Assembly (NCBI GenBank): GCA_964568385.1
Contig: CAZMQP010000003.1
Span: 1-28,383, forward strand
Direction of reading: 5' to 3'
Length of the DNA stretch: 28,383 bases
From: an uncultured bacterium
Lineage (GTDB): Bacteria > Eisenbacteria > RBG-16-71-46
The notes beneath the pieces are model-generated. The model made no database searches. It was not told where the DNA came from and saw only the letters and a program-made list of their open reading frames with translations. Positions 1 to 3,334 of the stretch are shown here, piece by piece. Position 1 is the stretch's first letter. Every line of letters begins with the position of its first letter. Position numbers and translations under genes: made by a program.

Positions 1-3000
1 TGAGCGGCCAGTCGAGCACGACGACGCCCCCGGCGGGCACCGCCGCCGTGAACGGCTGGCGCGCGACCTCCACGCCGGCGGCGGTCAGCACGGCGAGCAC
101 GCGGCCATCGGTCGCCGCCGCCGAGCCGGCGTTGCGGACGTGGATCGCCACGCGCATCGGGGCCCCGGCGGCCGGCTGGGCGGGGGTGATCCGGATGTCG
201 GACGGCGTGAGCTGCAGGTCGGGACCGGGCGCGCCGCGCCGGCCGCCGAGCCCGGGCTTGAAGCCCGGCTGCCGCGAGAACCCCGGCTTGCCGGCCGAGT
301 CCGGCGGACCGAACCCGCGCGGGGATCCGGGCCGGCCGGGGCCGGCCGTCGTGATCGCGGCCGGCCGGCCGAATCCGCGCGTGCCGGGGGCCGACACCAG
401 CACCGGCTTGGACGCCTCGCTGCGGCTCGCGCCCACGGTCACCGTGGCGCGCACATCGTGCGGCCCCGGCGTCACGGTCCACGGCTTGAAGCCCTCGGCC
501 ATCGCGAGGCCGTGGGCCGGCACGTCCACCACGGTCTCGCCGAGCGAGGCGCCATCCACGCTCACCGCCACGCGCGCACCCGTGATGGGCGCACGGTCCA
601 GGTTCGAGAGCTGCACCGCCACCGACAGGGGAGCGCCCGGGACGGGCGGGAACGGGCGGAGCACGATGCTGTTCGCCGAGAGCGCCAGCGCCGGCCGGGC
701 GGCCAGCGAGCGCACGCCGGGTCCGCCGACCATGGCCCGCGGCGAGGCGCGGAGGGCGGCGACGGGCTGCGACGACACGGGGCGGACGAGCGGGGTGAGC
801 GATCTCGTCGCCGAGAGCGCGCGCACCTGACCGGCCGGCGCCGCGAGCGGCGCGGGGGCGCTGCGCGCCGCCGGCGCGGGGCCGGCGACCGAGATGGTGC
901 TCGAGGCCGACGAGGTCAGCGGCTTGCCGGTCCCGCCGACACCGACGAGGTCGGCGCGCAGCCGGTAGGTGCCGGGGCGAGGCGGCGACCACTCGCTGAA
1001 GGTCACCGTGCGACGCTGGCCCGGCAGCAGCGTGCCGAGCGAGCGCGTCGAGACGACGGCGTCGTCGATGCGCAGCGTCGCCACGACGTCGCGGAACACG
1101 GTCTGGAAGGGGTTGGCGAGCGTCATGGTGACGGGCTCGCGCGCCGGTGCGCTCGAGGGCGCCGGAGCCGCGGTGACCGACCGCGTGCCGGTGGCCGTGC
1201 CGGCGGCCGGCGCCGGCGCGGGCGCGGGCGCCGGAGCCGCGGTGACCGACCGCGTGCCGGTGGCCGTGCCGGCGGACGGCGCCGGCGCGGGCGCGGGCGC
1301 CATCATCACGCTCGGCGCGCTCAAGCCCTCGATGGTGGCGAACCCGAGCGCCGAACTCGTGGCCATCATGGTGCGGGTTCCCGAGGGCGCGCTCCCGCCC
1401 GGATCGGGCGGGCTGCCCGAGGGCGTGGACGAGCTCTGGAGCATCGTGCGCGAGCCCGCGGTGCTGATCGCGGCGTCGAGGATGTGCGACTTGGGCGGCG
1501 GCTTCTGACCCGGATCCACCTGCAGGTTGCCCAGCTCGACCAGGTTCGAGCTCGGGTCCGAGTCATGGCTGCAGTACGCCTCGGCGGCGATCCCCTGCAG
1601 CAGCCCCGCCGTTCCCGGCGTCCAGCGCAGCTCGACCGACGTCTGCGCGCCCGGCGAGAGCGTGACGGGATTCGTGCGCGCCAGGTCGCTCTTGCGCGCA
1701 TCGCGCAGGTAGACCGCCGCATCGGTCGCCACCGCGCCGCCGGCGTTGAAGAGCGTCACCGGGATCGCGACCGCCTGCCCCGCCTTGACCTTGGCGGGCA
1801 GCGCGCCGATGCCGACGATCTGGAGGTCGGGCGACTGGAGCGGCAGCCCGGACGTGCCGGCGAGCCCCGGCTCCTGCTGCGGGGAGAAGAGCTCGTCGGC
1901 CGTCTGGTTGAGCCAGGAGTCGAGCATCCCGAACAGCGCGTTCTGCAGGCGCGACTTGACCGCCTGGCCGAGCCCGCCGGTCTGCGCCGCCTCGCCCAGT
2001 TCCTTCACCGCGGCGAGCGCATCGGACGCCTGCGGGGACTGCGCCAGCGAGGTCTCGAGCGCGGACATCACGCGGAAGGCGGTCTTGGGCGCCAGGCTCG
2101 TGCCGCCGCTGCGGGCACGCGACAGCAGGCCGAACTGAGAGCGCACCCCGCTCACCCACGACTGCGCCTCGCGCGACTCCGCCTTGGGGTCGTGCCACAT
2201 GCGCGCCACCTCGCCCGCGTCCGGCTGGCGCTTGAAGGCGGCGCGCTCGCCGGTGCCGCTGTCCACGGCGCTGCGCCACAGGATGCCGGCGAAGGGCGAG
2301 TCCACGCCCTGGCTGGCGCGCAGGTCGCACAGGTTGGTGAGCGCCACCTGGTAGTAGCGCGCCTGGGCGGTGTCGGAGCCGGCGGCCGTGGAGTAGCCGG
2401 TGTCGAGGATCAGCAGCTTGCCGGGCAGGTCGGCCGCCAGCCGCTGCACCAGGTCGGGCAGCCGGTCCACGCCCTCCGACGACAGGCTCCCCGGGTACCA
2501 CTCCACCGAGGCCGCCTCGACCGGCGCGGAAGCGAGCACGGTCGTCAGGTAGTCGCGCAGGCCGGCGTAGGCCTGCTGGTAGCTCTCGTCGGTGATCGCG
2601 GTGCGCGCGATCGCGCCGCGGCGGATGAGCTCGTAGTCGAACGAGCTCGGCACGAGGAGCGGCGTCGCCTGCACGCCGCTCGACGCGAGTCCCGCCAGCT
2701 CGGCGGCGCGCACGCTCTCGGCGGCGGCCTTGAGCAGCGCGGCCGCGGCCTCGGGCTCCATCGCCCCGTGGCTCGCGGGCTGGTTGAGCGGGCGCCCGAG
2801 ACGGTAGAACACGATCTGCGAGTAGGCGGGCAGTCCCGCGGCGCCCAGGTTCGCGATCACCTTGCCCACGAGCGACGCCGCGGCGTGCGGGTAGTCGGCG
2901 GGCAGCGGCTCGCCCTCGGCTGCGCCCAGCAGCGTGGGGGCGATGCGCACCTGGTTGCGCTGCGCCCACTGGCACAGGCGTGCGAGCCGTCCGGCCCCCT

Positions 3001-3334
3001 GGTCCCCGAGGTCGCGGGCGTCCACCTCGAACTCGATGACGTTGAAGCCGGCGCCCTTGAGGAACGAGTCCCAGAGGTCCTGCAGCGCGGCGACCTCGTC
3101 CGCCTTGGCGCGGCCCTTGTCGGACACGCCCGGCAGCGCGCGCAGGTCCACCGCGATGGCGTGCACCGGCAGCAGGCCGACGGACGCGGCGGTGGAGGCG
3201 GACGGCGGCGCCGCGGCGGCGGGAGCCGCGGGCGTGCCCTGCGCATGGCTCCGCCCCGCCTGCGCGAGCCCCAGCAGCACCACGCCCAGCACCGCGAGCC
3301 GGTGTGCCCCCTGCATCGTCCGAACGCCGCTCAT
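1..3334 (-). CDS. g8: exported multidomain protein, partial (at least 1111 aa, runs off window): signal peptide + clan GH-A-like TIM barrel + at least 4 CARDB-like Ig domains with Pro/Ala/Thr linkers
   Basis: My translation of the minus strand gives ATG at 3334 with SD GAGGAGG 6 nt upstream and an open frame to the window edge. It begins MSGVRTMQGAHRLAVLGVVLLGLAQAGRSHA|Q. Barrel-like motifs: SVEWYPG, LLILDTGYS, QARYYQ, FAGILW, QFGLL...PKTAF. CARDB-like units: PDLQIV..VTLFNAG..LSPG..LRW and PDLQLT..VRNAG..LDW. Not in the supplied ORF track because there is no stop codon in the window. Confidence 0.85.
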   Translation of the reverse strand, partial: MSGVRTMQGAHRLAVLGVVLLGLAQAGRSHAQGTPAAPAAAAPPSASTAASVGLLPVHAIAVDLRALPGVSDKGRAKADEVAALQDLWDSFLKGAGFNVIEFEVDARDLGDQGAGRLARLCQWAQRNQVRIAPTLLGAAEGEPLPADYPHAAASLVGKVIANLGAAGLPAYSQIVFYRLGRPLNQPASHGAMEPEAAAALLKAAAESVRAAELAGLASSGVQATPLLVPSSFDYELIRRGAIARTAITDESYQQAYAGLRDYLTTVLASAPVEAASVEWYPGSLSSEGVDRLPDLVQRLAADLPGKLLILDTGYSTAAGSDTAQARYYQVALTNLCDLRASQGVDSPFAGILWRSAVDSGTGERAAFKRQPDAGEVARMWHDPKAESREAQSWVSGVRSQFGLLSRARSGGTSLAPKTAFRVMSALETSLAQSPQASDALAAVKELGEAAQTGGLGQAVKSRLQNALFGMLDSWLNQTADELFSPQQEPGLAGTSGLPLQSPDLQIVGIGALPAKVKAGQAVAIPVTLFNAGGAVATDAAVYLRDARKSDLARTNPVTLSPGAQTSVELRWTPGTAGLLQGIAAEAYCSHDSDPSSNLVELGNLQVDPGQKPPPKSHILDAAISTAGSRTMLQSSSTPSGSPPDPGGSAPSGTRTMMATSSALGFATIEGLSAPSVMMAPAPAPAPSAGTATGTRSVTAAPAPAPAPAPAAGTATGTRSVTAAPAPSSAPAREPVTMTLANPFQTVFRDVVATLRIDDAVVSTRSLGTLLPGQRRTVTFSEWSPPRPGTYRLRADLVGVGGTGKPLTSSASSTISVAGPAPAARSAPAPLAAPAGQVRALSATRSLTPLVRPVSSQPVAALRASPRAMVGGPGVRSLAARPALALSANSIVLRPFPPVPGAPLSVAVQLSNLDRAPITGARVAVSVDGASLGETVVDVPAHGLAMAEGFKPWTVTPGPHDVRATVTVGASRSEASKPVLVSAPGTRGFGRPAAITTAGPGRPGSPRGFGPPDSAGKPGFSRQPGFKPGLGGRRGAPGPDLQLTPSDIRITPAQPAAGAPMRVAIHVRNAGSAAATDGRVLAVLTAAGVEVARQPFTAAVPAGGVVVLDWPL
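1157..1301. repeat. 69-bp tandem direct repeat (about 2.1 copies) inside g8, encoding a 23-aa linker unit APAPAP(S/A)AGTATGTRSVTAAPAP
   Basis: Units begin at 1157 and 1226, with a partial third unit at 1295. There is one mismatch between the full copies (C1207 vs A1276). Confidence 0.95.

Follow-up and report, generated by a model that had tools for sequence, protein, structure and literature searches.

A GH53-like barrel that has most likely lost its glycosidase activity, carried on a CARDB stalk and encoded in a conserved Eisenbacteria operon

We analysed a stretch of 28,383 nucleotides (nt) from an uncultured bacterium (GTDB lineage Bacteria; Eisenbacteria; RBG-16-71-46; positions 1 to 28,383 of contig CAZMQP010000003.1, assembly GCA_964568385.1), hereafter called the window, and focused on g8, a minus-strand gene that runs off its left edge. 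The reading that we favour, with moderate confidence, is that g8 encodes a secreted pseudo-glycosidase, in which a barrel resembling glycoside hydrolase family 53 (GH53) has been kept as a binding or docking head on a stalk of CARDB domains within an envelope system. Alignment to relatives with intact motifs shows that the canonical catalytic residues are lost in g8 and dispensable in its orthologues. The gene, the barrel and the positions that correspond to the catalytic sites are located as follows.

2..3334, minus strand: g8 coding sequence, with a G+C content of 0.96 at third codon positions (GC3), start codon ATG 3334 and the 3' end (about 50 codons) past the window edge.
2039..3181, minus strand: (beta/alpha)8 barrel, GH53-like, with the clan GH-A fold, residues 60-440, as assigned by AlphaFold2 (AF2), Foldseek and hhalign.
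2789..2800, minus strand: L187-G188-R189-P190 at the end of strand 4, where the canonical sequence is (I/V)-E-N-E, with Pro at the site of the acid/base Glu.
2630..2638, minus strand: D241-Y242-E243, following strand 5; these residues do not vary in the g8 clade.
2396..2404, minus strand: D319-T320-G321 at the end of strand 7, where the canonical motif is E-T-G, with Asp at the site of the nucleophile Glu.

No match to the g8 barrel was obtained with Pfam, NCBIfam, phmmer against the PDB, a PDB profile search with the g8 family or a Pfam search over 24 orthologues, and the Pfam, NCBIfam and PDB sequence searches with the whole protein recognised CARDB alone. The AF2 model of residues 40-500, for which the alignment of orthologues served as input, contained eight beta-alpha units with a predicted template-modelling score (pTM) of 0.79. 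When the barrel model was compared with the PDB using Foldseek, 132 matches were found at E <= 0.001, and the top matches all belonged to clan GH-A (GH39, GH1, GH53, GH2, GH5, GH10 and GH51). The best match was PslG (GH39, 5bx9) with an E-value of 2e-7, followed by SghA and beta-glucosidases (GH1), and the GH53 structures 1ur0, 1hjq, 6gp5 and 4bf7 were also among the matches. The model and the uniform clan membership of these matches bear out a preliminary description of the locus, made from the sequence alone, which had proposed a clan GH-A TIM barrel.

In clan GH-A barrels the acid/base Glu is located on strand 4, as part of an N-E motif, and the nucleophile Glu on strand 7. We aligned the g8 clade to a canonical group of relatives that retain both residues (described below); hhalign joined the two with a probability of 100% and an E-value of 1e-44 over 332 columns, setting R189-P190 on the N-E motif and position 319 on the nucleophile Glu. 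The motif alignment around strand 4 is free of gaps, with the canonical Q-I-E-N-E-M-N-H-P-x-x-H lying over Q-L-E-R-P-L-N-H-P-x-x-H of the g8 clade. In the strand order of the AF2 model, position 188 comes directly after strand 4 and D319 stands at the end of strand 7, two residues ahead of G321. The position of the acid/base Glu, 190, is occupied by Pro in 22 of the 26 close orthologues and by Ser in three. At the position of the nucleophile g8 itself has Asp, and the orthologues vary among D, G, S, E, N and T; those in the same operon include N319 (L002) and G319 (L004), and Ser is also found among the syntenic orthologues. Position 319 falls in the 77th percentile of variability within the barrel and its changes are non-conservative, and its neighbours K314, T320, G321 and S323 are invariant. 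At position 188 the orthologues alternate between E, G and D; P0003 (83% identical), for example, combines E188 with D319. On strand 6, the canonical group has a Tyr as partner of the nucleophile, and most non-canonical members have Phe at this site. Homology to relatives with canonical motifs thus goes together with missing catalytic residues, which is the mark of a pseudoenzyme. With the dyad lost (N-E to R-P and Glu to Asp), the g8 barrel most likely no longer cleaves glycosidic bonds by the clan mechanism, and the residual Asp at position 319 is probably not needed.

The preliminary description had built its case on three motifs, all of which were located: LLILDTGYS, in which the D319 codon lies exactly at 2402-2404; FYRLGRPLN, lacking N-E, in which G188 is encoded at 2795-2797; and FGLL...PKTAF, which is kept at residues 409-428. 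Its topological placement of the catalytic sites and its claim that the dyad is absent both held, but G188, which it had taken as the acid/base equivalent, had to give way to P190 because of the gap-free alignment to E-N-E. Its proposal of a dead barrel on a stalk of immunoglobulin-like (Ig-like) domains agrees with the alignment, by which the dyad is lost, and with the four CARDB-like domains found. Two further interpretations were rejected. G188 is not an assembly error, since three other runs share the codon and six orthologues carry Gly; in these metagenome runs (biofilter, bioreactor), near-identical strains showed no variant at the G188 or D319 codons. A GH13-like reading of F-Y-R-L-(D/E/G) was discarded since R186 is not conserved (Gln in most sequences) and the fold matches all belong to clan GH-A.

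A barrel-only profile searched against 1.84 billion representative proteins identified 154 family members. After realignment to the hidden Markov model of the barrel, 114 of these cover strands 4-7, and the classes below were counted on this set.

Canonical, E-(N/D/H)-E on strand 4 and E-T-G on strand 7: n=14, both Glu invariant.
Strand-4 Glu only: n=23, long, with a C-terminal extension.
Strand-7 Glu only: n=3, long, with a C-terminal extension.
D319 without the strand-4 Glu (includes g8): n=19, long, with a C-terminal extension.
Neither residue: n=55, long, with a C-terminal extension.

The canonical proteins are short and stand alone (median 419 amino acids, aa) or are fused to PKD domains, and the tree separates them from the 100 non-canonical sequences, which group in a single clade (support 0.86). 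With regard to the origin of the family, the two best PDB sequence matches of the canonical-group profile were GH53 galactanases at marginal E-values of 0.0025 and 0.037, and the alignment falls on the GH53 motifs LVAET and QIGNEIN. The canonical members P0142 and P0148 scored 20.6 and 20.4 bits against Pfam GH53 (PF07745), where the cut-off is 24, so the canonical relatives make up a separate, unnamed family; no match to Pfam GH53 was found in g8 and its 24 orthologues. As judged from these alignments, the best explanation is that the barrel descends from an uncharacterised, GH53-related family of clan GH-A glycosidases. Among species-representative genomes, nine of the 11 loci of the g8 clade are in Candidatus Eisenbacteria, and public records label g8-type proteins just "CARDB domain-containing" or "hypothetical".

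Two observations on other members of the family may be added. An intermediate clade fused to CARDB (P0031-P0059; CARDB in 6/9 members tested) retains E-(D/N)-E on strand 4, and at the nucleophile position its members show Thr, Ser, Gly or Val, a pattern that could reflect either stepwise decay or a substrate-assisted mechanism. The gene for the canonical member P0134 (L005:6001-7158), in which N-E and E-T-G are intact and no signal peptide is apparent, overlaps by 4 nt the gene for a TMEM260-like GT-C glycosyltransferase, to which it is, as judged from this arrangement, translationally coupled.

The mean pairwise identity between orthologues was 58% for the barrel (3% gaps), 45-52% for the Ig domains and about 29% for the linkers. 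Being the best-conserved region, the barrel has evidently been retained for some function. We propose that a GH53-like barrel lost its retaining dyad on fusion to the CARDB stalk or shortly afterwards, and that it was then kept as a non-catalytic head for binding or docking, whose ligand would most plausibly be a carbohydrate of the envelope or the environment. The stalk that bears this head would consist of a helical linker and four CARDB Ig-like domains on flexible Pro/Ala/Thr linkers of variable length. We infer ligand binding, a surface location and contact with g9 or with the products of the upstream genes g1-g7 from sequence, predicted fold and synteny; binding of glycans and anchoring of g1-g7 would be plausible roles.

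Several results weigh against this reading. The TM-scores of the Foldseek matches were moderate (0.42-0.52), and the residue geometry of the barrel was taken from the topology of the model and from alignments. A carboxylate is kept at position 319 (Asp) in g8 and in 18 other members of its class, and near the C-terminal face of the barrel the acidic residues D241 and E243 do not vary within the g8 clade. Moreover, conservation of the beta-alpha-loop (catalytic) face did not exceed that of the back face (0.79 vs 0.80, p 0.5), a result that lends no positive support to a ligand pocket and would suit protein docking just as well. Finally, signals of the LPXTG, PEP-CTERM and type IX secretion system (T9SS) kinds were sought by eye in the C-termini of the orthologues and none was seen.

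The alternative that survives best, which we nevertheless regard as unlikely, is that g8 has remained an enzyme through a rewiring of its active site, in which, for example, D319 would act as nucleophile or base and E243 or D241 as acid/base. Such an enzyme might use other chemistry, that of a transglycosylase, lyase or phosphorylase, with a polysaccharide of the envelope or the extracellular space as its substrate, and the CARDB stalk would hold it at the surface. What keeps this alternative alive is the invariance of D241 in 100/100 non-canonical sequences together with the clade-specific E243, which is present in 84/100 non-canonical but only 2/14 canonical sequences. The Asp shared at position 319 by the 19 members of the class, the barrel's rank as the most conserved region and the intermediate clade, which keeps its D/N-E pair without the nucleophile, also favour it, and GH5 modules that may 'possess alternate mechanisms' have been described (PMC3526467). 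Such an enzyme would, however, have to work with Pro at the acid/base position in 22 of the 26 close orthologues and Ser in three, with Gly, Asn or Ser at position 319 in syntenic orthologues and with Phe for the strand-6 Tyr in most non-canonical members, and the catalytic face shows no excess of conservation.

We consider it less probable again that the barrel has no glycan or small-molecule ligand and serves as a rigid protein-protein docking or scaffold domain in contact with g9 or with the g1-g7 paralogues. The even conservation over both faces of the barrel is in line with such a role, as are the free variation of the former catalytic positions and the strict co-occurrence of g8 with the operon and g9. 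Against it, the invariant polar and aromatic residues N192, D241, W287 and S323 remain at the C-terminal ends of the barrel strands, as in sugar-binding subsites.

The pseudo-glycosidase reading places the barrel on a stalk, and the elements of this stalk are as follows.

1832..2038, minus strand: helical linker, residues 441-509, helices in the AF2 model with a low predicted local distance difference test (pLDDT) score.
1508..1831, minus strand: CARDB domain 1, residues 510-617, 26 bits when taken alone (cut-off 22.7).
1141..1301, minus strand: 69-nt tandem repeat, 2.3 copies, found by Tandem Repeats Finder within the Pro/Ala/Thr-rich linker 1.
881..1138, minus strand: CARDB-like domain 2, residues 741-826, 19 bits in Pfam and thus under the cut-off; hhalign to domain 1, 92%.
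383..688, minus strand: CARDB-like domain 3, residues 891-992; hhalign to domain 4, 94.5%, and to domain 2, 91%.
2..223, minus strand: CARDB/DUF11-like domain 4, residues 1046-1119 onward, cut by the edge; hhalign to domain 1, 97%, E 2e-11.

Pfam CARDB (PF07705) scored 52.9 bits on the whole of g8 against a gathering cut-off of 22.7, and all 24 orthologues match this family, with DUF11 in 17/24. Domains 3 and 4 taken singly gave no CARDB match in Pfam, and domain 4 gave a weak DUF11 match in the search with g8. The four domains are mutually related by profile-profile comparison, and together with the whole-protein score this upholds the CARDB array that had been proposed for g8. The linkers between the domains are rich in Pro, Ala, Ser, Thr and Gly. 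Linker 1 is polymorphic in length, a 63-nt in-frame deletion (1213 to 1277) being present in two biofilter runs, X1 and X2; the 69-nt repeat within it encodes an APAP...GTATGTRSVTAAP linker. Motifs of the form R-(S/T/G)-hydrophobic (TRSV, TRTM, TRSL, VRSL, TRGF and PRGF) recur in the g8 linkers between 300 and 1460 of the window and may be processing sites. In all orthologues, the short tails that follow the last CARDB domain end in a basic residue (...PRSTVGTIR, ...TIGITR, ...TPTGK; e.g. L001:13250-13402), and this C-terminal tail may be recognised by g9. Por_Secre_tail was not among the 16 Pfam families matched by any of the 24 orthologues.

The evidence that g8 is a gene comes from its composition, its start region and its orthologues. 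The G+C content of the window is 70-79%, and for this reason bases 1-3442 contain long open frames in either direction. The frame on the minus strand has no stop codon between base 2, at the window edge, and GTG 3358, and it includes ATG 3334; its G+C content by codon position is 0.73/0.60/0.96, steady in each 300-nt block, whereas that of the plus-strand frame (2..3442) is 0.95/0.61/0.72, with a translation rich in Arg and Gly. The codon-position bias, with its GC3 of 0.96, decides between the strands and identifies the minus frame as the real gene. Its absence from the default list of open reading frames (ORFs) is explained by the frame running off the window; without open ends, the list contains 140..3442 on the plus strand but not g8. 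The following features belong to this region.

3341..3345, minus strand: Shine-Dalgarno sequence GGAGG, 6 nt upstream of ATG 3334.
3242..3334, minus strand: Sec-type signal peptide, residues 9-39 of P0001, MSGVRTMQGAHRLAVLGVVLLGLAQAGRSHA, followed by QG.
140..3442, plus strand: antisense shadow ORF and no gene, G+C content 0.95 at codon position 1, Arg-rich translation.

The GGAGG sits 25 nt past the TAG stop of g7, and the nearest orthologue starts at the same point as ATG 3334. As read from the sequence, the predicted signal peptide opens with a basic n-region, continues with a Leu/Val core and carries an S-H-A motif, and a lipobox Cys, which was sought in the same way, was not found. The 3' end of g8 and the following gene, g9, were read from the orthologous contigs L001, L002 and L004. 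The orthologues (n=25, 1126-1317 aa) indicate about 50 further C-terminal residues for g8, and the frame is intact in all 25 of them and in the 154 family representatives. The best explanation is that the product is a Sec-exported protein of about 1,160 aa from a Candidatus Eisenbacteria-type bacterium. That the frame is a chance GC-rich opening or a decaying pseudogene, with the plus-strand ORF as the real gene, is effectively refuted: DNA of 75-79% G+C does give long ORFs on either strand, but GC3 is 0.96 throughout, the start region holds a Shine-Dalgarno site and a predicted signal peptide, the frame stays intact across orthologues and representatives with the barrel at 58% identity, and it is the plus-strand ORF that has the high G+C content at position 1 and the Arg-rich translation. 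The same evidence vindicates the preliminary description on two points, namely that a hidden minus-strand gene extends from ATG 3334 to the edge and that 140..3442 is its antisense shadow. Two further plus-strand ORFs, at 3-830 and 969-1508, have a GC3 of about 0.95; they have their wobble position in common with the frame of g8 and are antisense artefacts.

The g8 gene is preceded by seven minus-strand ORFs (g1-g7), none of which has a Pfam match, and it is the eighth gene of a conserved operon that encodes secreted paralogues of unknown fold. The same arrangement is found in contigs with g8 barrel regions that are 83%, 60% and 49% identical, in agreement with the earlier grouping of g8 with g1-g7. 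In related contigs, g8 is directly followed by g9, which encodes a protein of 930-958 aa and which lies as follows.

L001:13399-16191 and L002:13573-16449: g9, past the left edge of the window.

The two g9 sequences from L001 and L002 are 53% identical, and g8 and g9 homologues co-occur on nine further contigs, which were matched by their identical lengths. In L001 the two genes overlap by 4 nt, and g8 is, as far as gene layout tells, translationally coupled to g9 in these relatives. The g9 protein has a signal peptide and belongs to no Pfam family; its model begins with two beta-sandwiches, which a disordered linker of about 115 aa joins to a set of about 24 long antiparallel strands, and its fold matches include MtrB, Deinococcus SlpA, LptD and the ushers FimD/PapC. 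This strand architecture and the fold matches indicate that g9 is a large outer-membrane beta-barrel, which makes an envelope-anchoring role plausible. Given the conserved operon and the coupling to g9, g8 is probably an envelope or surface component of the system that the operon encodes.

A more speculative proposal, to which we attach a low probability, is that g8 and g9 form an undescribed outer-membrane display module of Candidatus Eisenbacteria, in which g9 (24-26 strands) would export or anchor g8 and the former glycosidase head would act as a lectin-like adhesin or as a docking platform for g1-g7. Such a module would loosely resemble an usher with its tip adhesin, or MtrB with its partners, the parts being unrelated.

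The other genes of the window (16021-28182) encode MsrB, a DUF4442 protein, an HD-domain protein, a YCII-like protein, a thioredoxin-reductase-like flavoprotein and an electron transfer flavoprotein (ETF)-ubiquinone oxidoreductase, and a MacAB-type efflux set (HlyD, an ATP-binding cassette (ABC) ATPase and two FtsX/MacB permeases) lies in the flank. These flanking genes are ordinary and fit a diderm organism. In L002, g9 is followed at 16529-21370 by the gene for a 1613-aa protein with DUF5122 beta-propeller repeats, Calx-beta and weak matches to FlgD_ig and the T9SS C-terminal domain, which hints that type IX secretion may be used for other surface proteins in these bacteria.

Retention of a glycosidase fold under selection, for binding, after loss of one or both catalytic carboxylates is known from the GH1-like domains KL1 and KL2 of alpha-Klotho and from the GH18 chi-lectins. 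These families and their organisms are unrelated to g8, and binding has been demonstrated for them whereas it is inferred for g8. The GH53 endo-beta-1,4-galactanases (7osk, 4bf7, 1ur0) have the (beta/alpha)8 fold in common with g8, and their LVAET and GNE motifs line up with the E-T-G and N-E of its canonical relatives; g8 differs from them in having no Pfam GH53 match, R-P for N-E, Asp for the nucleophile Glu and four added CARDB domains. PslG, the GH39 hydrolase of the Psl exopolysaccharide of Pseudomonas aeruginosa (5bx9, 4zn2), whose catalytic residues are E165 and E276, is the best structural match (TM-score 0.44-0.48), and both proteins are exported barrels from a multi-gene envelope or exopolymer operon. 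However, PslG is active and has no CARDB stalk, whereas g8 is without the dyad, and the two are 13% identical. The closest precedent is the group of non-catalytic GH5 modules, including GH5_30 and lipoproteins, that carry large C-terminal extensions (Aspeborg et al. 2012, PMC3526467). Like g8, these modules have a clan GH-A barrel whose catalytic machinery is incomplete, carry a large C-terminal extension and sit on long branches; g8 differs in being GH53-like, Sec-secreted and no lipoprotein, in its CARDB array and in its conserved operon with an outer-membrane barrel.

As inactive GH-A modules are already known, the finding is incremental for specialists in carbohydrate-active enzymes. For a domain of about 400 aa left unannotated in public records, it nevertheless provides the fold and the evolutionary origin, and it defines a small, unnamed GH53-related family, one clade of which has turned into a pseudo-glycosidase with a CARDB stalk, so that the family offers a clear-cut natural example of how an enzyme turns into a non-enzyme. 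For the Eisenbacteria, the probable glycan- or partner-binding head of g8 and the outer-membrane barrel of g9 are the first functional handles on an otherwise featureless operon. Both point to a cell-surface apparatus, of which the g8 protein would probably be the binding or anchoring part.

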